A stretch of DNA of 46,578 nt from a virus (Duplodnaviria > Caudoviricetes). The notes beneath the pieces were generated by a model, which saw nothing but the letters and a program-made list of their open reading frames with translations, was not told the origin of the DNA and did no database searches. Shown here in pieces: positions 19,966 to 43,138 of this stretch. The stretch is taken from IMG/VR virus record IMGVR_UViG_3300022670_000061, positions 1-46,578 of that record; one strand, given 5' to 3'. The number at the start of each line of letters is the position of its first letter. The first letter of the stretch is position 1. A program made the position numbers and the translations under genes.

Positions 19966-20319
19966 TTAAAGTTCAGATAAAGCAGTAGCAGCTTCTGCGA
20001 ACCTAGTAGTCGTTTCAGAAAGCTTGCCTGCTACAGAAGTGATTTGCTCAGCGAGTATTTCGATTTCCTTCGGCTCGCCTTTGGAAAGTGTTTCGTAATG
20101 ATTAGAGATAACTTCACGAAGTTCAGCTTTCTGAACCTGAGCATCTTTACGGCATTCAGCCATGGTTTTGCGAAGTTCTTTACGTTCTTCTTTGCCAGCG
20201 TTAACTTCTTCACGCAAAGCAGCTTGCTCTTCACGAATAGCCTTTGCTTTTAAGTTAGCTTCTTTAAGCTGTTCAGATGGGCTTAGGGTTACTTCTTCAG
20301 TTTCAGTTTCATTTGGCAT
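19966..20319 (-). CDS. Coiled-coil hypothetical protein (own promoter and terminator)
   Basis: 117 aa, E/K/A-rich; GAGGAGG RBS. Confidence 0.8.
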   Translation of the reverse strand: MPNETETEEVTLSPSEQLKEANLKAKAIREEQAALREEVNAGKEERKELRKTMAECRKDAQVQKAELREVISNHYETLSKGEPKEIEILAEQITSVAGKLSETTTRFAEAATALSEL

Positions 20320-20355
20320 ACCAGCCTCCTTATATGTTTAAAATTAAGTCTGATC

Positions 20356-20384
20356 ACTATATCTCATATCTATGGATATGTAAA
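20356..20384 (-). promoter_or_regulatory. sigma70-like promoter
   Basis: TTTACA-17-TATAGT. Confidence 0.7.
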
Positions 20385-20388
20385 GGGT

Positions 20389-22200
20389 TTATTGTGCATT
20401 TTTATATCCTACTTCTTTCAACATTTTCTCAGCTTCTGTCACGTACCATTCTATGTCTACATCATTTGGGAATTTATCTGGCAGTTGCATTATTGGCTTG
20501 GCCCCATCTGACCGTGGAACCTTATTGCCATTATCTGCGACGTACATACTATCCAATTCATTCTTGCCGTAATACCATCTCACGGCCTTGCCTACTAACT
20601 TCCCGTCGTACGTTGCCCCGCCGTTGTTAACAGTTCTGACAGTAAGGAACTTAGTAATATCATCACAGTATTCAATAGTGTCTCTTACGGGTATACTATT
20701 CTGTAAGAATTCTTTAGTAGCTATAGCACAGATCTCATTGACTGGATTTTTCTTAAGCATATTTTTAGGTGAATGCGGATCACAATATACCCCTATGGAT
20801 TTAACGTAATCTCCTTCTGCCCCAATTGCTATATAGTTATTGACATCACGGCTATGCACTGACTTATAGTAAGTATATTCCATGTCATAAGATGTATCAA
20901 ATTCCCACTGCTCTACTATTTCTTTCATCAGCGTTTTCTGATTAGGTCTTAGGCTGACGACAATACCATCAGTATTGGCGCTTAGTATTTTAAAGCCCGC
21001 TAGTGTTAGTCTTTCAATCAACATCAGCAAGGACAACTGACCTGTTATAGTTACTTGCGCCATGAGATCAGGGGAATAAACTATAGACCATTTATTGCCG
21101 AACTTACCAAATAGTCCGTTAATAGTAATTTTCAAGCTTGCGTCTACTTCCTTGTCTCCATCATCCTTGGCTTTTAATCTTCTTTCTACAATGGACCTGT
21201 ACACGTCTAAGAATGGACGACCTAAATGCTTTGGATATAGTTCATTATTTAATATGATATTAGGGTAGAATGCGGCAACATCAATATCAACTAGCAATTT
21301 GTTTTCATTTGCGTAATGTGATATTTTCTTTTCTACGCTGTGCATACCCCCAATCCCTATCTTATATTTGAGATCATTATACATAAATTTCTCTTCAAAT
21401 AAAAGCGAATCTTGTTTAACATGCCCCGATGATTGCACGACTATAGGTATAGAGCAATACTCATTATAAATTTCTTTGAACAATTTGGTTTCAAATATTA
21501 AGCTGCTAGGGGGTTTGTAGTAGAATTGAGTACCTGCTTCTATCTTTGGTCGCTTGGCTTTTATGCCATAATGTTCTCCCAGTTCATGCTTGATGACTGC
21601 TTCTGCTATCTGTGCATCTGACTTAGATCTTAGATCAACTTTGTATTCTTCACTCATGTGCAACCTAAGATCTAATTGCTTTTCTAAAGTGTTAAGCAGT
21701 AGAATAGGCCCGTCATTATCATTTTCACAATACAACCTCATTTCTGGTAGGTCTGATTCTTTGATAATCGCATCTGGCTTTATAGGTAAGTCTTGCATTT
21801 TTGGGGCATGCATTCTTCCCATATACATTTTAAGGGAAGCAGATAAGGGGGCTACTTGTATTAAGTCTATAGATTCATAGTAAATCTTACCCGCCCCCAT
21901 TTGTTTGAGTACTTGCCAAGGCTGTTTTCTATCAACAATCAGCATGTCACTTCCTGCTTTGATAGCTTCATTACTTAATCCTCTTAATAACAAGGCTAGG
22001 ATTACGGAATCATATTTATCACCGTTGAAAGTAACTATGTCATACTTATTAAGTATGTAACATATATTATCTCTATTGATATCACTATCGTTGAACTTTT
22101 CAAAATAGATAACGTCTTTAGAAATCACCTTTTTAAACATAACTAGGCAATAGTTCTTATAAGTTTCGGTATCGCATATGATTGCCGAACTGTAATCCAT
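20389..22200 (-). CDS. DNA polymerase, family B-like, with 3'-5' exonuclease
   Basis: ExoI CDTETY, ExoII TFNGDKYD, motif A DVAAFYP, motif B KITINGLFGK, motif C SANTDGI. Confidence 0.9.
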   Translation of the reverse strand: MDYSSAIICDTETYKNYCLVMFKKVISKDVIYFEKFNDSDINRDNICYILNKYDIVTFNGDKYDSVILALLLRGLSNEAIKAGSDMLIVDRKQPWQVLKQMGAGKIYYESIDLIQVAPLSASLKMYMGRMHAPKMQDLPIKPDAIIKESDLPEMRLYCENDNDGPILLLNTLEKQLDLRLHMSEEYKVDLRSKSDAQIAEAVIKHELGEHYGIKAKRPKIEAGTQFYYKPPSSLIFETKLFKEIYNEYCSIPIVVQSSGHVKQDSLLFEEKFMYNDLKYKIGIGGMHSVEKKISHYANENKLLVDIDVAAFYPNIILNNELYPKHLGRPFLDVYRSIVERRLKAKDDGDKEVDASLKITINGLFGKFGNKWSIVYSPDLMAQVTITGQLSLLMLIERLTLAGFKILSANTDGIVVSLRPNQKTLMKEIVEQWEFDTSYDMEYTYYKSVHSRDVNNYIAIGAEGDYVKSIGVYCDPHSPKNMLKKNPVNEICAIATKEFLQNSIPVRDTIEYCDDITKFLTVRTVNNGGATYDGKLVGKAVRWYYGKNELDSMYVADNGNKVPRSDGAKPIMQLPDKFPNDVDIEWYVTEAEKMLKEVGYKNAQ

Positions 22201-22664
22201 TACTTCTTGCCCTTGGCTTTTTTCGGAAGCTTAACTTCACTTTTGGCGGTTGCTGTTTTGTCAGCTGATCTTTTTAATGTGACCGCCCCGATGAGTTTAT
22301 TGATAAGACAAAGAACTTTGATAAGATCAATTTCATTTTTCCAATTCATTAAGTTCATACAAATTTGGTTTTCAGGATAGAAAACTTCTGTATCTGCACA
22401 GAATTTGCCCCATTGGAATTCCAATTCTGTGGAAGGTATCGCAGGGTTGTCCCTGCCATTAACATTATATTCTTCTAATATTTTGAAGACATAATGTTCA
22501 GCCTTTTCAAGATCCCTTAGTCCATCTTTTCTTTGCCAGCGGATAATATATTTGGTGGCACAGCCTTCAAGATATCCCATGTGGTTTTGTTCGACCATGT
22601 CCCAGTGCTGAGCACCTTTTGTCTTGTAATGATCACCTGATATTTGTGTACTATTTGCAGTCAT
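22200..22664 (-). CDS. DUF3310 family protein (putative nucleotide kinase-related)
   Basis: ANSTQISGDHYK..GCATKYIIRWQRKDGLRDLEKAEHY. Confidence 0.85.
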   Translation of the reverse strand: MTANSTQISGDHYKTKGAQHWDMVEQNHMGYLEGCATKYIIRWQRKDGLRDLEKAEHYVFKILEEYNVNGRDNPAIPSTELEFQWGKFCADTEVFYPENQICMNLMNWKNEIDLIKVLCLINKLIGAVTLKRSADKTATAKSEVKLPKKAKGKK

Positions 22665-23178
22665 TTAACCGTACCTCTTTTGATGAGTATTCTATAAATT
22701 GTTCTATACCTACGACTTTACCTACATACACCCCTAGCATTTCACAACATCTCTGTATAACATGTATTATATTGCGGTTGCCCATATTGAGCTCTTCTAC
22801 ACAATACATGATTAATTCTATAACATCTGCACATTTAGCAATGTCTTTAGATAGGCCTAGCAATTTGGGTATATCTGGCAAATACATAGATTCCCATGAT
22901 TTTTCAGCATGTTTCAAAGCCATGCTTAGTTTTGGATATGCGGCTTTAGCGTCAGAAGGCATGTCTCCGAAACGCTGTTCAGCTATGTCATGTTTAGCCA
23001 TATAGATAACAATCTTATAAGTAGCTTCCATATTCATGCCATTAACTTTGCACAACTCATCAGCTATCAAAACCGCATTGGCGCTATGATGCCCATTAGA
23101 ATACGGCTGTATATGGGGTATAGTATGCAATCTTTCTACTCGTAGCCCTTTCCGATATAGTAATATTTCTTTTAACAT
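22651..23178 (-). CDS. HD-domain 5'-deoxynucleotidase (YfbR-like)
   Basis: VERLHT, NGHHS, KHDIAE..GDMPS and KCAD motifs. Confidence 0.85.
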   Translation of the reverse strand: MLKEILLYRKGLRVERLHTIPHIQPYSNGHHSANAVLIADELCKVNGMNMEATYKIVIYMAKHDIAEQRFGDMPSDAKAAYPKLSMALKHAEKSWESMYLPDIPKLLGLSKDIAKCADVIELIMYCVEELNMGNRNIIHVIQRCCEMLGVYVGKVVGIEQFIEYSSKEVRLNDCK

Positions 23179-23179
23179 T

Positions 23180-24190
23180 TCATTTCACCCTATTTTCTAA
23201 CCAGTTATGGACACCTATTCTCCAGTCATCTGCTTGGATAGCTGATAACATAGGTAATGTAATAGAAGGCCCGTTAGATTTGTACACCAGATACATTTGT
23301 AGCATGGGGTAAACCAACTCTTTGAAATAATCAGACTGGCAACTAATAGCCCCATTCATGTTCATAACTCCTCCTAACCCGAATTCGTCATAATCCCTAA
23401 AAAATGCGTCTAAATCATTGTTGAACCACACCATTTCATTTGGCTGCATTAACGTAGAGTAATGCTCACAATGATAAACAGGATGCTCCATTGAAATACC
23501 GTGTTTCATCTTCTCCCATAACTTGCCCCCTGCTCCGCCAAGATATACATGAAATGAATTGCTTACCTGAGTATAAGTTCCCATGGGAATATTCACTGAG
23601 GCAGCAACGTATTCTTGGAGCATACTAAACTGAACCACATTTGCCCCATAAGCCCCCCAAAGCATATCGTTTGACCTGTTATACACTGTGATATCTAGGC
23701 GGCCCTGACGGATCCTAAAAAGAACACAGAGATTACAGGGTTTATCTTTCGTGGTTTCATTTTCAAGATCAAATTTATCCCAGATTTGTAAGACGACTTG
23801 ACGACTTTCTGGCTTCTTTTTTAGAATACAAATTGCAGTATGAATTTGATCTGTTCCGCAGACTGTTCTCATGCGTGAGCCATAAGGGGCGTTAAACGTT
23901 ACTCCGTCATCACTGAAATTAGCCATGCGTTTGTTGAATTCAGTTAAGAACTTGACATCTTTACGCCCTGCCAGTATCCACAATGCTTCAAAGAAGTGAA
24001 AGAATGGATTGGCATTCCGGTCCTTATTCACAAGAACTCTTTGCCAAGGTGTTTTGTAAACGGTTGCCACCGGATACGGAACTTCTATAATATCACCTGC
24101 TCGGCTTTCCTGTTCTATACCGTCTGTGTTGATCAGCATGATCCCTTGATTAAGGGCTTCTTCTACTGTGTATGCTTCTATCACATGCAT
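23180..24190 (-). CDS. Thymidylate synthase superfamily enzyme, probably dUMP hydroxymethylase
   Basis: NPFFHFFEALWILAGR, SRQVV, DKPC catalytic Cys, RSNDMLWGAYGAN (Asn indicates dUMP type), SFHVY, and a long C-terminal extension. Confidence 0.85.
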   Translation of the reverse strand: MHVIEAYTVEEALNQGIMLINTDGIEQESRAGDIIEVPYPVATVYKTPWQRVLVNKDRNANPFFHFFEALWILAGRKDVKFLTEFNKRMANFSDDGVTFNAPYGSRMRTVCGTDQIHTAICILKKKPESRQVVLQIWDKFDLENETTKDKPCNLCVLFRIRQGRLDITVYNRSNDMLWGAYGANVVQFSMLQEYVAASVNIPMGTYTQVSNSFHVYLGGAGGKLWEKMKHGISMEHPVYHCEHYSTLMQPNEMVWFNNDLDAFFRDYDEFGLGGVMNMNGAISCQSDYFKELVYPMLQMYLVYKSNGPSITLPMLSAIQADDWRIGVHNWLENRVK

Positions 24191-24192
24191 AG

Positions 24193-25059
24193 TTATTTTC
24201 CTTTCCCGTTGTATTTACGTTTAGACCTTCCGGTCCCGTTAGTAACTCTCATGAACTTATCGTATTCACAAAAACAATTTTGAAGATTTTGCTGGCATAG
24301 GATATGTAGTATCTCATCAGGCAATTCCCATTCTAAAATGCTTTCAGCTTCTAATATTCTGGCCTTGTAGTTTTTGTTTGTAACTTTTTCGTTAAAGAAC
24401 CATTCTAAACCGCGCAATGACCCAGGACCAGGAGCACTAAATGACCACCAGTCAGGGGCGTGGTGTAATGGGTGGCCTTTGGTGTTTTTAAGATCAGCTA
24501 TGATCTGAGCACCTATGAAATTACCAATACCATTTATATCTATAAGTAGTTCATGAGTATATTGTAATGTAGATTTTCGAGAATGCATACTTCTACTAAA
24601 AGGAATATGCAATTCTTTCACATTTTTAAGAACTTCTATACAGTACTTTCCTTTATCCATTTTCTTGCCATTGGTAGAAACTATGTACGCCCCATTCCAA
24701 ACATTGTCTCCTCTGTCTCTACGGTCGTAAATCACATCAGATAAATTTTCAATCCAGTCAGCATACCCGAATGAATGAGGTTGCCCGATTTCTTCAAGAG
24801 TACTAGGCAAGTTGAACAGCCTAGCTGCTGTCATTGCTAGTACTAGGAAATTATCTTCATTCGGAAATCGGGAATCATAAACCCAATTATTACGAATCCA
24901 CTTTGTAACCGTATCATCTTCCCTGTTCACATTGCAGAAATAGGTGTCTTGCATCACCGTATTATCTGACCATGGGGCTGCTTCACCTGCTTCTTTTTTC
25001 TTACGTATAGATTCCCGTTCGTTAATCCAATACACTAGCTGTTCTTGATTAGGGGTCAT
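24193..25059 (-). CDS. aGPT-Pplase1 / HMUDK-helical family DNA base hypermodification protein (HhH-glycosylase-like fold)
   Basis: ERESIR..PWSD..FCNVNREDD, GIGNFIGAQIIADL, GPGSLRGL and QNCFCEYDKF motifs. Confidence 0.85.
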   Translation of the reverse strand: MTPNQEQLVYWINERESIRKKKEAGEAAPWSDNTVMQDTYFCNVNREDDTVTKWIRNNWVYDSRFPNEDNFLVLAMTAARLFNLPSTLEEIGQPHSFGYADWIENLSDVIYDRRDRGDNVWNGAYIVSTNGKKMDKGKYCIEVLKNVKELHIPFSRSMHSRKSTLQYTHELLIDINGIGNFIGAQIIADLKNTKGHPLHHAPDWWSFSAPGPGSLRGLEWFFNEKVTNKNYKARILEAESILEWELPDEILHILCQQNLQNCFCEYDKFMRVTNGTGRSKRKYNGKGK

Positions 25060-25355
25060 GAGGTTATCTCTTCAGGAAAAGAAGCTTCAAAAATATCATT
25101 TAAAACGTTATTCAATTTTGCCCAATTATCTCCACCAGATTTGAAATACTCATGCATTTGAGTTTCTTCTCCAGCGGCGGCTATCCAAAAAGAATGGCCC
25201 AAATCATTAGGATCATCTTTGAAAAATCCTAAAATGAGCAAACCATCTATTGCAGGGATAGCTCTTTCTTTATTTTCAGGGCTAAGATAGAACGCACCAC
25301 CATTGTCTGATTTTAATACTTCCATTAATTGGTTTAACACTTCTTCACTAGTCAT
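25056..25355 (-). CDS. Hypothetical protein (99 aa) inside the modification cluster
   Basis: Start at MTSEEVL (25355) with GAGGA RBS; overlaps the next gene by ATGA. Confidence 0.7.
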   Translation of the reverse strand: MTSEEVLNQLMEVLKSDNGGAFYLSPENKERAIPAIDGLLILGFFKDDPNDLGHSFWIAAAGEETQMHEYFKSGGDNWAKLNNVLNDIFEASFPEEITS

Positions 25356-25356
25356 T

Positions 25357-26157
25357 TTATAATCCTCTTCCAAATTCAAAAGCTTTCTTCCACTGCATCC
25401 TAACATCAGTTCGCGTTTCCATTCCGTTGGCGTGCCAAGCTGTTTTGGATTGCTTCTGCACGACCGTGACAAAATCAGGATAGCGTTCTTTAAGGGCTAA
25501 GGCGCAAGCGCGTTGAAGTTCAGGGGTTCTAAATGTGCTGCATCCCCCTTGCATACCGGACCCGCCCTTTTGATCAAAACAATATTTGTAAAACACGCGG
25601 TTTGGAATTCCTTGCGTAAACATATCTAGGAGCAGATTGAAATCCTCCATAACTTCAGAGGTATCAAACCTGAGACCCTCTTCTTTAAACTTTGCCACGT
25701 TAACCCCATGGAATCCCCCTTGCCTTGTGACGTCCTTATAGTCTTCCTGAACATGATTGTTCCCTGACCTTGCACTAACCCCTACAAGAGTGAATTCCTC
25801 AAAGCCTAGTGCATCAATAAGTGCTTCAAACATCTCTTCAACTTCGTCATCAGTAGACTTGCCTAGCTTATTGGTGATTTCATCTCTTTTGAAGAAAGCC
25901 AAATCATCATCCAACATGAATAGGAACTCTGTTTCACAGGTTTCTATACAGTGTTGGCGAGTGGCTGATATTCCATTAACATCATCAGGCAATATATGGA
26001 TATCACATATATCACTGTATTCAAATTCATGTTCATCAGCTTCATAATCTTTTACGACTAGGACCGCTGCTTCTCTTATCTCTTCAGGTAAGTTCATCAG
26101 TGTTGTTTGCATGTTGGCCCTCCCTAATGTAGGGATCATAATTGTGGCATAATCCAT
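25357..26157 (-). CDS. GT-A fold glycosyltransferase (TAGT/GREB1/JGT-like)
   Basis: IMIPTLGR, GISATRQ, FMLDDD (DxD), MEDF, GGCSTFRT and VRMQWKKA motifs; start at ATG 26157. Confidence 0.82.
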   Translation of the reverse strand: MDYATIMIPTLGRANMQTTLMNLPEEIREAAVLVVKDYEADEHEFEYSDICDIHILPDDVNGISATRQHCIETCETEFLFMLDDDLAFFKRDEITNKLGKSTDDEVEEMFEALIDALGFEEFTLVGVSARSGNNHVQEDYKDVTRQGGFHGVNVAKFKEEGLRFDTSEVMEDFNLLLDMFTQGIPNRVFYKYCFDQKGGSGMQGGCSTFRTPELQRACALALKERYPDFVTVVQKQSKTAWHANGMETRTDVRMQWKKAFEFGRGL

Positions 26158-26158
26158 A

Positions 26159-26851
26159 TTACCACCCCTCATCTTCTTCATCATAGGCTTCATACTGCCC
26201 ATTATCTTCATCGGCAGTAACATAACCTTCACGGATAGATCCTGCGATGTATCCGTTAGCATATTTTTCGTCACAGTCTTTAGCTGACATGAATGCAGAC
26301 CTAACCTCTTCAAATATAGCTTTATCCTCAAACTCTTCTATTATTTTCTGAATAAGGCCCATCACAGATGTAGGTTTTGCTTCTTTAAAAGTGATGTTTA
26401 ATACATTTCCTGCGAGCGATTTTGCTGTGATGCGCTTACCTGTCGGCGCTACCTTGGCAGGCTTAGCCGTGGTTATTTCTTTAGGTTCCTCAGAAGGATC
26501 TTTCATGGGTTTCTTAGCCGCTTTAACTTTAGCCCTAGCTTTCTTTGGATTGTATTCGGCCATGTAATCTTTCAATGGGAACTCTTCAAATCCATCATAA
26601 CCCTTTACTGCTTCAAGTATTGCTTCGGCTGCTTCATCATGGTTTTCAAATCCGAAGTCTGTATCCACCCCCATAATCTCAGCCATGTTTTCCAATTCAT
26701 CAAGCGGTATCATGAACTGTGATCTTTCATGGCTGTCAATAATGATCCATTGCTTGGATACATATTGGGCAGTAAGATTATCGGGTGTTCTTTCATTGCC
26801 CCCATTTAGGCATTCAATAACACCTTCTTTCTTATTAATAACGTAGAACAT
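26159..26851 (-). CDS. Hypothetical protein; C-terminal domain shared with the neighbouring gene
   Basis: 230 aa with a K/A/P linker; TSVMGLIQ..ANGYIAGSIREGY. Confidence 0.75.
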   Translation of the reverse strand: MFYVINKKEGVIECLNGGNERTPDNLTAQYVSKQWIIIDSHERSQFMIPLDELENMAEIMGVDTDFGFENHDEAAEAILEAVKGYDGFEEFPLKDYMAEYNPKKARAKVKAAKKPMKDPSEEPKEITTAKPAKVAPTGKRITAKSLAGNVLNITFKEAKPTSVMGLIQKIIEEFEDKAIFEEVRSAFMSAKDCDEKYANGYIAGSIREGYVTADEDNGQYEAYDEEDEGW

Positions 26852-26861
26852 ATTGATTTCC

Positions 26862-27317
26862 TTATTTTGTTTTTAAGCTAATATAGTCTTCACGAATAGC
26901 ACCGATAACATAGCCGCGAGCGAATGAATACGTGTTTTTCTTACTACTACGTGGGCAAGACCAATTTGATTGAAAATGTGCAATAGTCTTACTGATAGTG
27001 GGCGCTTGATTAGTGACATAGTCTTGAATAATACCCATAGCTGAAGTCTTATCTTTTGCAGTCTTATTCCCTTTGACAATCATAACCCTAGCACCATCAT
27101 CATACTTCTTGGCTGGGGATTTCTTAGGCTTATCTTCATAAAATTCATTAAACGCGTCAAGTCTTTCTCTGGCGTCACCTAGTTTTTTGCAAGCTGTAGT
27201 CTTGTCCCTGAATTTCTTAATCGGATTACCACTTATAATCTTCATGATGCTGTTGTACTCTTCAGCGATAGCTTTTAGAGTTAATGCTGCGATAGGTGAT
27301 GTTATTTCTTTAGTCAT
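26862..27317 (-). CDS. Basic hypothetical protein with the paralogous C-terminal domain
   Basis: 151 aa; TSAMGIIQ..ARGYVIGAIREDY; AGGAG RBS. Confidence 0.78.
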   Translation of the reverse strand: MTKEITSPIAALTLKAIAEEYNSIMKIISGNPIKKFRDKTTACKKLGDARERLDAFNEFYEDKPKKSPAKKYDDGARVMIVKGNKTAKDKTSAMGIIQDYVTNQAPTISKTIAHFQSNWSCPRSSKKNTYSFARGYVIGAIREDYISLKTK

Positions 27318-27361
27318 TGTAGTCTCCTGTTTTTCTGTTTTACTGTTTAACTATTGAAATG

Positions 27362-27390
27362 ATCATATCACAAAAGATTTAGGATGTAAA
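27362..27390 (-). promoter_or_regulatory. Strong sigma70-like promoter with extended -10, upstream of the modification/polymerase operon
   Basis: TTTACA-17-TATGAT with TGn; AT-rich UP element. Confidence 0.75.
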
Positions 27391-27409
27391 GTTTTATTTT
27401 CATTTTATT

Positions 27410-27456
27410 CAAAATAATATGAGACGAATGATCCAACCATTCATCCGCCCCATATT
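27410..27456 (-). terminator. Terminator hairpin after SSB
   Basis: AAUAUGGGGCGGAUGA/UCAUUCGUCUCAUAUU stem followed by AUUUUG. Confidence 0.65.
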
Positions 27457-27469
27457 AGATTAGATGAAC

Positions 27470-28018
27470 CTAGAACGGGATTTCGTCATCAAGGCTACCG
27501 TCACCCCATTCGTCATCTTCATCTTCGCTGTAATCGGCAAAGTCTTCACCCGCAGTGGTAGAACCATCTAAGCGGTCACCTTCTTTACGGAGCATAAGAT
27601 TATTGAAACCAGCGGCAACACCTTTGTTTCCGTCAGTATCAAATGCGTAGAAAACAACGGACACATGAAAATACGCCCCACTATAGCAAAGTTCTTGAAT
27701 ATCAGCAGAATCAGCAGGTTCATTATTTCTGTTAACAATCCCAGGTTTGCGGTTGCTGTTAGCGTTAAAGAAAGCCTTGCCTTCATATTGTTCTTCATCC
27801 CGCTCTTTATCACCATCGCGTAATGGGGTCTTAATCATTCCCATTTTTATGGATTGACCAAATTTTTCACGAGCAACTTGTTCTACGATTTTTTGTATTC
27901 TTTTGATTTGAGGGTCTTTTTTATCCAATATGATTTGAATACCATATCCCCCGTCTTTACGTTCATGATCCGCATACACATAAGAACCACGCACATCTTG
28001 TAATACTATTTTTGACAT
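27470..28018 (-). CDS. Single-stranded DNA-binding protein (DUF2815, T7 gp2.5-like)
   Basis: VRGSY, PLRDGD, FFNANS, YSGAY and GNKGVAAG motifs; acidic tail ending DDEIPF. Confidence 0.9.
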   Translation of the reverse strand: MSKIVLQDVRGSYVYADHERKDGGYGIQIILDKKDPQIKRIQKIVEQVAREKFGQSIKMGMIKTPLRDGDKERDEEQYEGKAFFNANSNRKPGIVNRNNEPADSADIQELCYSGAYFHVSVVFYAFDTDGNKGVAAGFNNLMLRKEGDRLDGSTTAGEDFADYSEDEDDEWGDGSLDDEIPF

Positions 28019-34154: not shown

Positions 34155-34442
34155 ATGGACGTTAATGCAGTCAGCAAGTATTTAGATAAATTAGATGAGA
34201 AAAATATAGATTTGGTCAAGTCTCTACAAAAGTTCTTAGTAAAACATGTAACGAGAGAGTCAGATGGGATAATATCAGTGAAGCAGTTGTATGATGAATA
34301 TATTGATTTCTGCACTAGTGGCAAACATCAAGCTATAAGTAAAAGGAAATTTACTATGGGTCTTAAGTTTAACGGAATTACAGTTAGGCGAGGCGGTGGG
34401 AACATATTAAAGGTGTATGGAGTTGAAAGTGATTGGTTTTAA
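34155..34442 (+). CDS. Stand-alone winged-helix protein paralogous to the primase-helicase C-terminus
   Basis: LYDEYIDFC..KRKF..L..G..VRRGGGNILKVYG versus YNMWC..KTHF..L..G..IRRGGGNVVKIYG. Confidence 0.8.
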   Translation: MDVNAVSKYLDKLDEKNIDLVKSLQKFLVKHVTRESDGIISVKQLYDEYIDFCTSGKHQAISKRKFTMGLKFNGITVRRGGGNILKVYGVESDWF

Positions 34443-34718: not shown

Positions 34719-35057
34719 ATGAAGATGGCTAAAAATGAAATTACTATACAATTAGATCAAGATCAGTTAAATGAAATTTATGCTGAAACACGAAACATGA
34801 TTGATAAGGAAATTGAAAACCTAAACATTAAATCACGTGATCAAGTTGATTCGTTCTTAGACACTCAGCTCGTACAGGTTGCGGGGGGTTACTATATACC
34901 TACTGACAATATAGACAAGATACTTGATTTTGTTTGTGGTGTAAATAGTGTCTTTAAGGAATGCAGGAGATGCAAGGGAACAGGTGAGTTAAGAATAAGT
35001 CATGCGGGTGCTATGGGGGCTTGCCATATATGCAGAGGAACAGGCGTCAAACTCTAA
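34719..35057 (+). CDS. Protein with C-terminal DnaJ-type CxxCxGxG zinc finger
   Basis: CRRCKGTG and CHICRGTG. Confidence 0.75.
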   Translation: MKMAKNEITIQLDQDQLNEIYAETRNMIDKEIENLNIKSRDQVDSFLDTQLVQVAGGYYIPTDNIDKILDFVCGVNSVFKECRRCKGTGELRISHAGAMGACHICRGTGVKL

Positions 35058-35398
35058 TGTTTACCTATAAGCCAAACTATGTCACAAGGAAACTGAAGCA
35101 GGGGTTAGAGACAGACCCTATCCGTGCTGCAATACGAAACCTTAGGATTAATATAGTTATATGTACCTATGCCTATGAGCATGACTATGAAGGGGAGTTT
35201 ATCCCAATAGTAGATGACTTCGACTTTGATGATATGGGAGAAGAGTTGATAGCCTTGCAAAGATACTTTCCTGAATATGCTAAGGATGCAGGGTTAATGG
35301 ATGATGTGTTTACGCATTGGACTAAACCGACAGGACTAGGATTGCCAAAGGATAAACGGATTAAACAACTATGTAAACTATATAGAGGAGATGAATGA
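35057..35398 (+). CDS. Protein resembling the N-terminal domain Ia of NAD-dependent DNA ligase
   Basis: YAYE..PIVDDFDFD....ELIALQRYFPE resembles LigA YY..P.ISD.EYD.L..EL..LE..HPE; start at ATG 35057. Confidence 0.6.
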   Translation: MFTYKPNYVTRKLKQGLETDPIRAAIRNLRINIVICTYAYEHDYEGEFIPIVDDFDFDDMGEELIALQRYFPEYAKDAGLMDDVFTHWTKPTGLGLPKDKRIKQLCKLYRGDE

Positions 35399-40025: not shown

Positions 40026-40433
40026 ATGTCAGCTAAGCCGATAACAATAGAAGAGTTACGAGGGTACATTGAAGCAGGTGAATCCCCTGATCCTTTACTA
40101 TTTTTAGAAGCAATAATGAATGGACAAGACCCCCGCAACATATCAGAAGTTTATGAACTAGTTTGTGAAATTGATGATTGGAATGAAGGTGAAATAAACT
40201 TATCTGATTGGGGTGAAGTTGTAGAATGTATTCGTAAAAATTACAAGTACAATAAAGTATCCATAAGTGAATCCCATAGCGCGGCTGTTTCACTGGCTTC
40301 ATACCTGCATCCCAAACAGAAACAAGTAGAGTTGAGCGGGGGTGTGGCAACAGGTCATATTAATATTGCAGACTACCCGTTAACAGAAGAAGATATAGAA
40401 GTATTCAAGGAGAAATTCAATGATGAATTTTAA
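40026..40433 (+). CDS. Terminase small subunit
   Basis: PLLFLEAIMNG..AAVSLASYLHPK..VELSG; lies directly upstream of TerL. Confidence 0.75.
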   Translation: MSAKPITIEELRGYIEAGESPDPLLFLEAIMNGQDPRNISEVYELVCEIDDWNEGEINLSDWGEVVECIRKNYKYNKVSISESHSAAVSLASYLHPKQKQVELSGGVATGHINIADYPLTEEDIEVFKEKFNDEF

Positions 40434-41286
40434 TCCTAATTCTATAGACACTTACTCACGATGGTCATTTAATGAAAAACGTATGCTTAAATACATGTGT
40501 GAACAAGATGGCATGCAGTTCATGAGGTATTTCTTTAAGTCGCGCGAGGGTAGTAAGATGCTTTTAAACTGGCATCATTATGTTTTGGACTATATTCTCC
40601 AAGCTGTTTTGGACTGCAAGCTTAACCGAATTATAATTAATATTGCTCCTGGGTATACTAAGACAGAAGAGGCGGTATTACACTTCATCGCTAGGGGGTT
40701 AGCCTTAAATGCAAGAGCTAAGTTTATTCACGCGTCTTATTCAGGAGACCTTGCCCATAACAACTCATCACAAATAAAAGATATCATTGAGTCTTTTGAG
40801 TATCAAGAGCTATGGCCGATGCAGATAAGAAAAGACGCAAGCGGAAAGAAAAGATGGTTTACCCATGCAGGGGGTGGCATGATGGCTGCTCCAGCTGGTG
40901 GTCAGATTACAGGGTTCAGGGCAGGTCGTATGGAGTCAGGATTTACAGGGGCGTTTATACTAGATGATCCAGTGAAGCCTGATGATGCTTATTCTGCCCC
41001 TAAACGGTCAGCCATTAATACTCGTTTCAATAACACTATGCGCTCACGACTAGCCGTTGAGTGGAATCCATTTATAATTATCATGCAAAGAATCCATGAA
41101 GATGATCTTACGGGTTATCTTTTACGGGGCGGTTCGGGGGATATGTGGCATCATATTTCGATACCTACAATGTTTTCAGAGGAAATACTGGATGCGACAT
41201 ATCCCGAGGACTATACCCACGGAATACAAATCAAGTTGAATGATATATTAACTGCATTGCATGGGGGTCCGGCCTATGCTTTTTAG
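40420..41286 (+). CDS. Terminase large subunit, ATPase half
   Basis: NWHH, Walker A NIAPGYTKTE, GGQITGFRAG, Walker B FILDDP and MQRIHEDDL motifs. Confidence 0.92.
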   Translation: MMNFNPNSIDTYSRWSFNEKRMLKYMCEQDGMQFMRYFFKSREGSKMLLNWHHYVLDYILQAVLDCKLNRIIINIAPGYTKTEEAVLHFIARGLALNARAKFIHASYSGDLAHNNSSQIKDIIESFEYQELWPMQIRKDASGKKRWFTHAGGGMMAAPAGGQITGFRAGRMESGFTGAFILDDPVKPDDAYSAPKRSAINTRFNNTMRSRLAVEWNPFIIIMQRIHEDDLTGYLLRGGSGDMWHHISIPTMFSEEILDATYPEDYTHGIQIKLNDILTALHGGPAYAF

Positions 41287-42022
41287 TCATAATCAGATAC
41301 TAGACATTCCTAATTCGGTAGAGGTAGGAACTTCGCTTTGGCCTTATAAGCATGACATTGACCAACTGAGAGTTATTGAAGAAGGTGATCCCTATACCTT
41401 TTCTAGCCAGTATCAGCAAAATCCTAGCCCTCTTGGCGGGGGTATGTTTAAGGATAAGTATTGGAGCTATTATGATGTGCTCCCTACAGACATAACTGCG
41501 AGAAGAATGTATGGAGACACGGCTTCTAAAACAAAGGAGCATAATGACTGGAGTGTGTTTGAATATTGGGTTAGGTCACAGACTAAGGGTATTTTCTTAG
41601 TGGACTTAGTAAGAGGAAAATGGGAAGCTCCTGAGTTAGAATCTAAAATGGTTGACTTTTGGAATAAGCATAAGCCTACTCAGTTCAAGCCATATGGCGT
41701 TCAAGTAATGAAGGTGGAAGATAAGAGTTCAGGCACAGGATTGATACAGGGTATAAAGAAAGACTACATGATACCCATTGAAGGTATACAAAGGAATACA
41801 GATAAGGTTCTAAGAGCAATGGGTGTTATTAAATATTTTGCTAGTGGGTATGTTCATATCCCTAGAGAAGCTGAATGGCTGCATGATTTTAAAGAGGAGT
41901 TTAGAAAATTTACGCCACTAATGACACATAAGCATGATGATCAAATTGACCCTGCGATGGACGCAGTGGAAGACTTAATTATATTTGAAGATTCATTATA
42001 TACCGAACATGCACTCGGCTGA
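41276..42022 (+). CDS. Terminase large subunit, nuclease half (+1 frame relative to the ATPase half)
   Basis: LWPYKH, FSSQYQQNP, YGDTA, VEDKSSG and HDDQIDP motifs; ATG 41276 preceded by GGGGGT (alternative ATG at 41261). Confidence 0.9.
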   Translation: MLFSHNQILDIPNSVEVGTSLWPYKHDIDQLRVIEEGDPYTFSSQYQQNPSPLGGGMFKDKYWSYYDVLPTDITARRMYGDTASKTKEHNDWSVFEYWVRSQTKGIFLVDLVRGKWEAPELESKMVDFWNKHKPTQFKPYGVQVMKVEDKSSGTGLIQGIKKDYMIPIEGIQRNTDKVLRAMGVIKYFASGYVHIPREAEWLHDFKEEFRKFTPLMTHKHDDQIDPAMDAVEDLIIFEDSLYTEHALG

Positions 42023-42043: not shown

Positions 42044-42586
42044 ATGAGTTCATTACGAAATGATTATAGCAGAATAACAAATAGTGAGTTGGGAGTGTTA
42101 ATACGTCCTGTATCTATAGACGGTACTTTAGGCGGTGATACTGATATGATGGTAGATGGCTCAAGTGTGCCTGTTAAGTTTTGGGTGCAACCTTTGCCGA
42201 CTACTAGATTTATAATAACACAAGCTTCCATAGAAATAAGTGATAACGGCAATCCCGAACTAGATGATTATGGGAGCGTTATGGGACCAATTCCTAACGG
42301 ATTGCAATTTTTCACAGAAATTGATGGAGTAGAAAACCTTTTCCCAACCCCATTAAAATCTAATTCAGAAATAATACAGCTATTTCCAGATATAGTTATT
42401 GTACCATTTCAAGGTTCTGTAATGTTAAGAACACATTCATTTGATGGGTTAGAGCATTCGCATTCTTTTATAGAGTTAAATGGTAATACTAATGATAAAT
42501 TCGGTGTAATAATTCAAGACGATTTTACAACATTGACTTGCCATAGCGTTGGTGTCAAGGGTAATATCAGAGCGGTAAATGTTTAA
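42044..42586 (+). CDS. Beta-rich putative virion accessory protein
   Basis: 180 aa; MVDGSSVPVKF motif; AAGGA RBS; lies between TerL and portal. Confidence 0.7.
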   Translation: MSSLRNDYSRITNSELGVLIRPVSIDGTLGGDTDMMVDGSSVPVKFWVQPLPTTRFIITQASIEISDNGNPELDDYGSVMGPIPNGLQFFTEIDGVENLFPTPLKSNSEIIQLFPDIVIVPFQGSVMLRTHSFDGLEHSHSFIELNGNTNDKFGVIIQDDFTTLTCHSVGVKGNIRAVNV

Positions 42587-42598
42587 GGAGAAATAAGT

Positions 42599-43138
42599 AT
42601 GTCAAGTTTACTAAATTCGTATAGAAAATTAACAGATGAAGTTAACCAAGGTGTGTTCAACACTGAAGAAATGTTGTTGTCGCAAGGTAGGGTATACAAG
42701 GGCAGTCAAATAGAACTTGTGCTAGGGGATGCCGCCGCTATTGACTTTGTTTTAAGTTCAGGTGATGACACAGTAGCCATTGCCGATATAATGATACAGA
42801 CCACATCTGAAGAAGTGTTAGTGGAATTTTTTGGTGGTCCTGTGTTTACTGTAGGAACACCTATTCCACTAGTTAATCAACTTGTGGGTAGTGTGAGACC
42901 TGCATTGGCGTCACTAGTATTGAATCCCACAATAACTGATGACGGTACGCTAGGCACTTCATCAATTATCCGAGGAGTGGCAGGACAAGGCAATAGAGAA
43001 GGATTTTCAGAAGGGGATGAAAGTTCGCTTAGTATTTTGGCTCCTAATACAGATATACTATTAAGGGTCACAAATCAAGGAGCAGTAGGCGTGGCTGATT
43101 TCAGTGTACGCATTGGTGAATTAGCAACTGTTATTTAA
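42599..43138 (+). CDS. Beta-rich putative virion accessory protein
   Basis: 179 aa; PTITDDGT and ILAPNTDILLRVTN motifs; AAGGAG RBS. Confidence 0.7.
   Translation: MSSLLNSYRKLTDEVNQGVFNTEEMLLSQGRVYKGSQIELVLGDAAAIDFVLSSGDDTVAIADIMIQTTSEEVLVEFFGGPVFTVGTPIPLVNQLVGSVRPALASLVLNPTITDDGTLGTSSIIRGVAGQGNREGFSEGDESSLSILAPNTDILLRVTNQGAVGVADFSVRIGELATVI

Follow-up and report, generated by a model that had tools for sequence, protein, structure and literature searches.

A kinase-less thymine-modification cassette in a marine myovirus-like phage, predicted to glycosylate 5-hydroxymethyluracil

What becomes of 5-hydroxymethyluracil (hmU) in the DNA of a phage that encodes a putative synthase for it and a glycosyltransferase (GT), and no kinase to phosphorylate it? 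The question is raised by the IMG/VR virus record IMGVR_UViG_3300022670_000061, which was analysed over its whole stretch of 46,578 nucleotides (the window). The 46.5-kb window is an entire phage genome with a 31-base direct terminal repeat and a completeness score of 100%, and the absence of a gene from it therefore counts. It contains tail sheath and baseplate genes, which indicate a myovirus-like phage, and is a complete marine phage genome carrying a thymine-modification cassette. A single DNA data set is listed as containing it, a marine sediment metagenome that may be its source and agrees with it over positions 20000-28000; no RNA data set is listed. The genes of the replication operon are all on the minus strand and abut or overlap their neighbors. 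They are arranged in the order of two upstream genes, a GT of the TAGT family, a 99-residue orphan, an aGPT-Pplase1 protein (aGPT1), a thymidylate synthase homolog, an HD-domain protein, a DUF3310 protein, and a family-B DNA polymerase. We consider it probable that hmU replaces thymine in this phage and that the GT would cap a part of it with sugar; more tentatively, aGPT1 would reduce the uncapped rest to thymine before packaging. Gene content, families, residues, absences, and swaps are direct observations, and the enzyme activities are predictions.

The synthase gene (23180..24190, minus strand, as all operon genes below; Thymidylat_synt E 3.7e-21) encodes a predicted dUMP hydroxymethylase of the M6 gp58 type, with 36% full-length identity to M6 gp58 (E 3e-66) and the same motif. 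Relative to E. coli ThyA, it has D149 at L143, C152 at C146, D175 at D169, and N184 at N177; C152 and N184 are the catalytic Cys and the specificity Asn named in the initial annotation of this sequence. An acidic residue at ThyA L143 is reported to mark hydroxymethylases, Asn at N177 specificity for dUMP, and Asp at D169 enzymes other than 5-hydroxy-dCMP synthase (PMC13326640). By these residues, the synthase reads as dUMP-specific and hydroxymethylating, and not as a 5-hydroxy-dCMP synthase. The phylogeny proposed in the annotation is supplied by a quick IQ-TREE tree with 90 rows, in which the synthase does not group with ThyA. It lies inside an 87-row group with the synthases of M6, SP10, and ViI (SH-aLRT 91), and ThyA and gp42 of T4 and CC31 are outside this group on long branches.

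Two other assignments of the synthase were tried and rejected. Canonical ThyA has a hydrophobic gate of the Leu143 type in place of D149, and the synthase scores 46–86 bits against ThyA family models, far under their cut-offs of 108–405. The dCMP hydroxymethylases and 5-hydroxy-dCMP synthases need N177D, with D169N in addition for the hydroxylase, where the window has N184 and D175. It is very unlikely that the enzyme is an ordinary ThyA or modifies cytosine, with the GT acting on 5-hydroxymethylcytosine (hmC) or on nothing in DNA. The top PDB sequence match of the synthase is a CMP hydroxymethylase, the spacing between Asn and RSND is common to the synthase and T4 gp42, and the window contains no dCMP or dCTP deaminase. 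However, residues 149 and 184, the low ThyA scores, and the position in the tree speak against this assignment, and in the cassettes of the nearest relatives DUF3310 is followed by a dCTP deaminase. The window phage would lean on its host for the deaminase, which is a small gap.

According to the initial annotation, the genome contains no P-loop kinase, pyridoxal phosphate (PLP) enzyme, radical S-adenosylmethionine (SAM) enzyme, dCMP deaminase, or TET/JBP oxygenase. Pfam searches of the genome matched neither the PF18748 kinase nor the PF18724 transferase. Our own profiles of the kinase, amino acid:DNA transferases (AADTs), PLP enzymes, two types of radical SAM enzymes, two types of methyltransferases, dCTP/dCMP deaminases, dUTPases, flavin adenine dinucleotide (FAD) lyases, acetyltransferases, and AlkB gave E values of 0.056 or worse in all six frames of the whole window. 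Searches with tblastn using proteins of M6, PaMx11-like phages, and P26218 found no kinase of 5-hydroxymethyldeoxyuridine (hmdU) and no clade-2 transferase in the window. The motif GxxxxGK[ST] occurs once in the window, inside the primase, and not in the PF18723 protein. The kinase search of all open reading frames (ORFs) that had been suggested, by PF18748, our own profile, and the P-loop motif, thus found nothing beyond the primase P-loop. The absences were thereby confirmed for the first four enzyme types; TET/JBP proteins are missing among the Pfam matches of the 76 ORFs of the window, and no dedicated TET/JBP profile was run. Neither linker-making genes nor sugar-nucleotide genes were found in the window.

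The annotation also held that the kinase pyrophosphorylates hmdU, which is incorrect. The characterized kinases transfer a single phosphate; the kinase domain is reported to be active by itself, and the kinase to act on DNA at the hydroxyl of hmU (PMC8989533). It is scarcely credible that aGPT1 itself is the hmdU kinase and the phage is not kinase-less after all, as the Pfam name of PF18723 ('5-hmdU DNA kinase, helical domain') might imply. The name traces to the fusion protein SP10 gp186, in which PF18748 spans residues 35-193 and PF18723 residues 313-598. The kinases M6 gp54 and ViI gp67 are devoid of PF18723, and the PF18723 protein of the window has no P-loop and matches M6 gp55, not the kinase gp54. 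Judged by its genes, the phage truly lacks an hmdU kinase, and the name of PF18723 is misleading.

The position that the kinase occupies in other phages is held by the GT in the window. We collected 232 loci with a full synthase, which form 139 clusters at 90% identity, and counted partners within 5 kb of the synthase in the 107 clusters whose upstream sequence extends for 3.5 kb or more. Because the scans started from window proteins and took at most 80 matches each, the counts are biased and the clusters not independent, which is a caution against our reading. The 5-kb span misses the AADT of loci L089 and L095. The slot beside aGPT1 and the synthase holds a TAGT GT in 64 clusters, a class-I methyltransferase in 27, and the kinase in 15. 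The GT co-occurs with the kinase in two clusters and with this methyltransferase in none. aGPT1 is near the synthase in 102 of the 107 clusters; it is accompanied by a GT and no kinase in 58, and by no labelled partner in two, one of which has a weak GT-B match in the slot.

The exchange is seen most directly between close relatives. L105, which has two GTs, and L189, which has the kinase, share 84% DNA identity from the start of aGPT1 onward and 73-78% in stretches upstream, and do not align across the slot. The same pattern is repeated between L186 and L195 over 6.3 kb downstream. The kinase is absent anywhere in four GT-bearing genomes that are 97-100% complete, in a search that matched a kinase-slot control, and it has no match in PhiJL001, RSL1, and MW202897. 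Two complete genomes, MW202897 and G008, contain the GT and the synthase without aGPT1. Therefore, the GT needs no product of aGPT1.

The GT gene (25357..26157; PF20691 E 1.6e-20, 74.4 bits against a cut-off of 27.5) starts with an ATG at position 26157 and encodes 266 residues of a predicted hmU-DNA glycosyltransferase, whereas a 324-residue ORF called from a TTG would overlap the upstream gene. The protein matches PHROG 842, beta-glucosyl-HMC-alpha-glucosyltransferase, with an E of 2.7e-47. Its model has a pLDDT of 94 and a GT-A fold, with Foldseek matches to TarS and TarP at E of about 1e-7. Residues R67, D83-D85, and E171-D172-F173 are conserved in 54 aligned homologs, and form the R...DDD...EDF version of the R...DDD...EDY/F motif that is reported as common to phage GTs and the base J glucosyltransferase JGT (10.1101/2023.12.21.572611). 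The GT-A enzyme with a DDD motif that had been annotated is thus confirmed. Members of the same family are reported to modify 5hmC of DNA with various sugars, among them hexose, N-acetylhexosamine, and hexuronic acid (10.1101/2023.12.21.572611). It is large, with 3004 clusters at 50% identity for E up to 1e-10; an alignment-based scan of viral contigs gave matches where a single-query scan gave none.

Since the kinase acts on the hmU hydroxyl and the GT swaps with the kinase, the GT would most simply be read as capping that hydroxyl too. We regard this as the most likely activity of the GT, and the predicted product is glycosyl-hmU, in which the sugar need not be glucose. The single GT and the absence of sugar-nucleotide genes from the window lead us to expect a mono- or short glycoside made from a nucleoside diphosphate (NDP)-sugar of the host. 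The proposal of nucleotide-level hmdU synthesis followed by direct glycosylation remains the best reading of the synthase residues, the GT family and motifs, and the kinase/GT swap, with the product itself being predicted. Two points weigh against it. PHROG 842 is named after a T-even enzyme that lengthens a sugar already in place, and some family members (GTI) are secondary transferases. It is also conceivable, with a low probability, that the DNA holds only hmdU and T and that the GT modifies virion proteins or surface glycans of the host, as its best matches among solved structures are wall-teichoic-acid and other cellular GT-A enzymes. However, these matches are generic (TM of about 0.5, 11-16% identity), and the GT is encoded inside a replication operon, belongs to the TAGT family, and swaps with a DNA kinase.

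Another pathway would place a linker between hmU and the sugar: aGPT1 would first add an amine, amino acid, or polyol to hmU without a kinase, and the GT would glycosylate this linker, as in phages YerA41 or SP-15. In its fold and Cys, aGPT1 resembles a group transferase; in SP10, no other enzyme is available to transfer glutamate; and RP13 reportedly combines heavily modified DNA with an aGPT1 and the lack of a kinase (PMC13697223). We nevertheless find the pathway improbable, as the slot partner in sister phages is a kinase shown to act on hmU itself, the GT and synthase persist without aGPT1 in two complete genomes, and the window has no linker-making genes.

Direct glycosylation of hmU, which we prefer, fits the accessory genes of related loci. 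Radical SAM/SPASM genes occur in nine clusters, all nine with a GT, and FkbM methyltransferases, second GTs, a GT61, and epimerases also occur. These genes would serve in sugar tailoring, and the glycan would then be an end product and not a leaving group. The radical SAM/SPASM proteins are twitch-like and are encoded beside the GT (L011 5937-7001) or fused to it (L108 3324-5063), sometimes together with FkbM; they are likely to tailor DNA sugars.

Several relatives fill the slot differently. The 5-hmdU kinase and aGPT1 occur without a nearby clade-2 transferase in L007 (6424-6996), L182-L184, L187, and L189-L195. An AADT search of five kinase-only contigs, one of them complete (G002), gave no match and had no positive control. 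These phages may have phospho-hmU as the final base, or aGPT1 may do the work of the transferase in them, as it may in SP10. In a large set of marine phages (L022-L097, 27 clusters; e.g., L024 5022-5864), the slot is filled by the class-I SAM methyltransferase, and AlkB and denV-like genes precede it; these phages are candidates for methoxymethyl-uracil DNA. In the cultured Ralstonia phage RSL1 (L002 3669-12063), three GTs, a sulfotransferase, an adenosine phosphosulfate (APS)-kinase-like gene, and a nucleotidyltransferase adjoin aGPT1 and the synthase, which makes a sulfated glycan on hmU a candidate product. The slot proteins of L228 (6754-7986) and L230 (6734-8011) are 410-425 residues long, that of L230 with weak GT-B matches, and both loci have a PNKP-type HAD phosphatase at the usual HD position.

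The aGPT1 gene (24193..25059; PF18723, HMUDK_hel, E 3.1e-35, 122 bits against a cut-off of 25) encodes a helix-hairpin-helix (HhH)-fold paralog of AADTs with a C-terminal CExxK motif, formed by C264, E265, and K268. None of the three residues varies among 125 locus proteins or among 134 distant representatives, and M6, ViI, PhiW-14, and SP10 all have the Cys. aGPT1 is 91% identical between the GT-bearing L105 and the kinase-bearing L189, and the synthase of the same pair 81%. The dN/dS ratio is about 0.05-0.2 in each of the seven kinase-less pairs tested, which indicates purifying selection. aGPT1 is likely to be an active enzyme with a job independent of the cap. Its conservation across the swap and its invariant Cys support the earlier suggestion that it performs a step different from, or additional to, that of the kinase.

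Structural comparison places aGPT1 close to the transferases and to base-excising enzymes alike. The top VIA match of the model (pLDDT 93.6) is the clade-2 enzyme PaMx11 gp46 (8z2m; Z 9.5, rmsd 4.3 over 218), which is tied with HhH glycosylases and queuine-salvage hydrolases at Z 8-9. The language-model neighbors of aGPT1 are AADTs (0.92-0.93). Foldseek gave no match at E up to 0.001, and a PDB sequence search with the aGPT1 profile found nothing meaningful.

The virions of SP10, PhiW-14, M6, and ViI are reported to contain no hmdU, the remainder being converted to thymine (Lee 2022). The hmU-to-T step has been called unknown, and infected cells are described as lacking dTTP (Kropinski 2018, PMC5977210). 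A clade-1 protein is listed for all four phages (PMC5889632 Table 3, in which the clade numbers of M6 are swapped relative to Pfam). SH-Ab 15599, the DNA of which is reported to contain dT plus an adduct (PMC13458397), also encodes aGPT1, and no aGPT1 was found in the plain-hmU phage SPO1 or in T4. M6 gp55, an aGPT1, is dispensable for the M6 adduct. In clade 2, E243 and T244 are reported to hold a metal on O4 and C247 is the nucleophile (PMC11472151); with borohydride, the clade-2 enzyme yields thymidine via an exocyclic methylene. From the occurrence of aGPT1 in phages with T-containing virions and not in SPO1, its invariant Cys, its dispensability for the M6 adduct, and the borohydride chemistry of clade 2, we tentatively propose aGPT1 as the best candidate for the conversion of hmU to T in the DNA polymer.

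Several observations speak against this proposal. An hhalign comparison of clades 1 and 2 gave no alignment, and the equivalence of their Cys residues is one of motif position and fold. The clade-2 metal ligands E243 and T244 correspond by position to Q260 and N261 in the window protein, and to E-H, E-G, E-N, or S-N in other clade-1 members. aGPT1 has no evident cofactor domain or source of hydride, and a hydroxyl is a poor leaving group. The legend to a lysate test of the kinase with PaMx11 gp50, an aGPT1, mentions no thymidine product in the portion of the supplement consulted. SP10 has no clade-2 enzyme, and its aGPT1 domain may accordingly be a glutamate transferase. Moreover, P26218 has the kinase and an AADT and no aGPT1.

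A possible, although unlikely, alternative keeps glycosyl-hmU as the product and gives aGPT1 another role: it might be an eraser, removing O-linked groups to restore hmU, or it might act as a glycosylase on hmU or assist in base flipping. An eraser would account just as well for the partner independence and the invariant Cys, and the tie of the HhH glycosylases and queuine-salvage hydrolases with the AADT match fits a glycosylase. However, these roles leave the hmU-to-T step unassigned, even though aGPT1 alone among the shared genes has no function assigned to it. Excision and refilling would need dTTP, which is reportedly lacking in PhiW-14-infected cells (PMC5977210), and reaction mixes with gp160 or gp55 still yielded adducts.

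In the pathway that we propose, with thymine formation by aGPT1, the synthase would make hmdUMP from dUMP supplied by host deaminases, the HD protein and perhaps DUF3310 would drain thymidine nucleotides, and host kinases and the phage polymerase would place hmdU in DNA. We hold this first step with high confidence. In the second step, which we judge likely, the GT would link the host NDP-sugar to the hmU hydroxyl in place of the kinase of M6, ViI, PhiW-14, and SP10, leaving the glycan as the end product. In the third step, which we put forward with more reserve, Cys264 of aGPT1 would attack C6 and the hydroxyl would be expelled, yielding an exocyclic methylene that a hydride would convert to T; in a kinase-less phage this would run without phosphate activation. 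Virion DNA is predicted to contain T and glycosyl-hmdU with little free hmdU.

The modification would serve to block host nucleases. The genome contains 40 TCGA palindromes, counted on both strands, where 138 are expected; CCGG, GGCC, and GCGC are depleted, and CTGCAG, TGGCCA, and GGTACC are absent. The avoidance of T-containing palindromes such as TCGA and CTGCAG would speak against our proposal, but the depletion extends to the T-free CCGG, GGCC, and GCGC. It is doubtful, when taken as a whole, that many small aquatic phages make glycosyl-hmU at the nucleotide level by means of a plug-in slot and that aGPT1 is a thymine-forming enzyme that acts on unactivated hmU through a Cys adduct.

The remaining genes of the operon flank these three enzymes. 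The HD-domain protein (22651..23178) resembles 5'-deoxynucleotidases and dNTP triphosphohydrolases (YfbR-like E 3.7e-11; PHROG 7076 dATP triphosphohydrolase E 3.4e-12), has 31% identity to M6 gp59, and keeps the H, HD, and D motifs; it would remove thymidine nucleotides from the pool. The DUF3310 protein (22200..22664; PF11753 E 8.1e-08) has 37% identity to M6 gp61, is encoded near the synthase in 64 of the 107 clusters, and probably has a role related to the nucleotide pool. The family-B DNA polymerase (20389..22200; PHROG 1252 E 3.1e-179, with weak NCBIfam family-B matches) would incorporate hmdUTP. The two upstream genes (26159..27317; 230 and 151 residues) have no Pfam or NCBIfam match. 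In our own profile searches, they are kept ahead of the slot in the nearest relatives and are weakly related to M6 gp49 and PhiJL001 gp18.

The 99-residue orphan (25056..25355) has no Pfam, PHROG, or NCBIfam match, no usable Atlas match, and no homolog at the other loci compared. It is probably a private insert outside the modification system. The coordinates and Pfam matches thus agree with the gene order given in the initial annotation from the GT to the polymerase, but the orphan, which the annotation included in the cluster, does not look like a part of the system.

Other parts of the window contain features apart from the cassette. The large terminase (40420-42022, plus strand) is encoded by two separate ORFs, one for the ATPase and one for the nuclease, with an overlap at a ATGCTTTTTAG-type junction. 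The split recurs with a near-identical junction in five of five relatives, and is therefore not an assembly error; the alternatives are a terminase of two coupled genes and a programmed +1 frameshift. Between the terminase and the portal are two genes of about 180 residues (42044-43138, plus strand), the second of which belongs to PHROG 5335. A small ORF (34155-34442, plus strand) resembles the winged helix at the C-terminal end of the primase, whose gene immediately precedes it, and a stand-alone Nlig-Ia NAD-binding domain (35021-35398, plus strand; PF22745, E 2.9e-08) is encoded among small early genes.

Direct glycosyl-hmU in a phage genome was not found in our literature searches, and base J is otherwise eukaryotic. 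If the proposed pathway is true, it would mean a base new to phage DNA and a DNA reaction of a new kind, and would fill a gap that has persisted since the work on PhiW-14 and SP10. The five-gene cassette is a minimal, clonable test case. The exchange of kinase, GT, and methyltransferase points to three different ways of capping a single hydroxyl, and the partner independence of aGPT1 makes the conversion of hmU to T a one-enzyme question, with the prediction that no phosphate is needed. A GT specific for hmU would be a labelling tool.

The gene set has published counterparts. HTVC023P-type pelagiphages are reported to encode a thymidylate synthase, aG/PT-PPlase1, a 5'-deoxynucleotidase, and a glucosyltransferase together (PMC9599517), as the initial annotation had anticipated in stating that similar neighborhoods had been predicted. 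They share the kinase-less gene set with the window, as do PhiJL001 (gp19/gp22/gp24) and RSL1 (ORF230-238). The available part of the pelagiphage account is restricted to genomes, and contains no product base, no exchange of kinase, GT, and methyltransferase, and no role for aGPT1. The annotation had presented the system as undescribed. The gene set is widespread among the clusters counted above and its neighborhood is published, which limits the claim; it stands in that no determined product base was found. Our literature search, which left most subscription papers and the supplements of the GT preprint outside its scope, found neither a product base for the gene set nor a function of clade 1.

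The phages YerA41, SP-15, and RP13 resemble the window phage in having sugar on the base at the thymine position, and RP13 in combining aGPT1 with the absence of a kinase (PMC13697223). They differ in that they are reported as large phages with the sugar on a long linker and with family-A polymerases fused to UDG (PMC13697223), whereas the window has no linker or sugar-nucleotide genes. The GT-A enzymes associated with phage TET/5mYOX and with T-even glucosyl-hmC belong to the same GT family (10.1101/2023.12.21.572611), but the predicted acceptor in the window is hmU, not hmC. The same preprint counts contigs with ThyS-linked GTs.

The clusters of M6, PaMx11, ViI, PhiW-14, and SP10 (PMC8989533, PMC5889632) contain, like the window, an M6-type synthase, aGPT-Pplase1, HD, DUF3310, and a polymerase in the same order. 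In contrast to them, the window has no 5-HMUDK, clade-2 transferase, tailoring enzymes, or dCMP deaminase, and has a TAGT GT in the kinase position, a family-B polymerase, and myovirus-like tail genes. With kinetoplastid base J, which is made by JBP and JGT, the window shares the predicted product class, O-glycosyl-hmU, and the GT-A motif; the likeness rests on this reported motif and the product class, and the sugar and linkage may differ. The hmU of the window phage would come from a nucleotide-level synthase, and not from oxidation of T in DNA by JBP. With no JBP, kinase, or AADT, the system is a member of neither group, and would work by joining a glycosylation of the base J kind to the pathway of M6.

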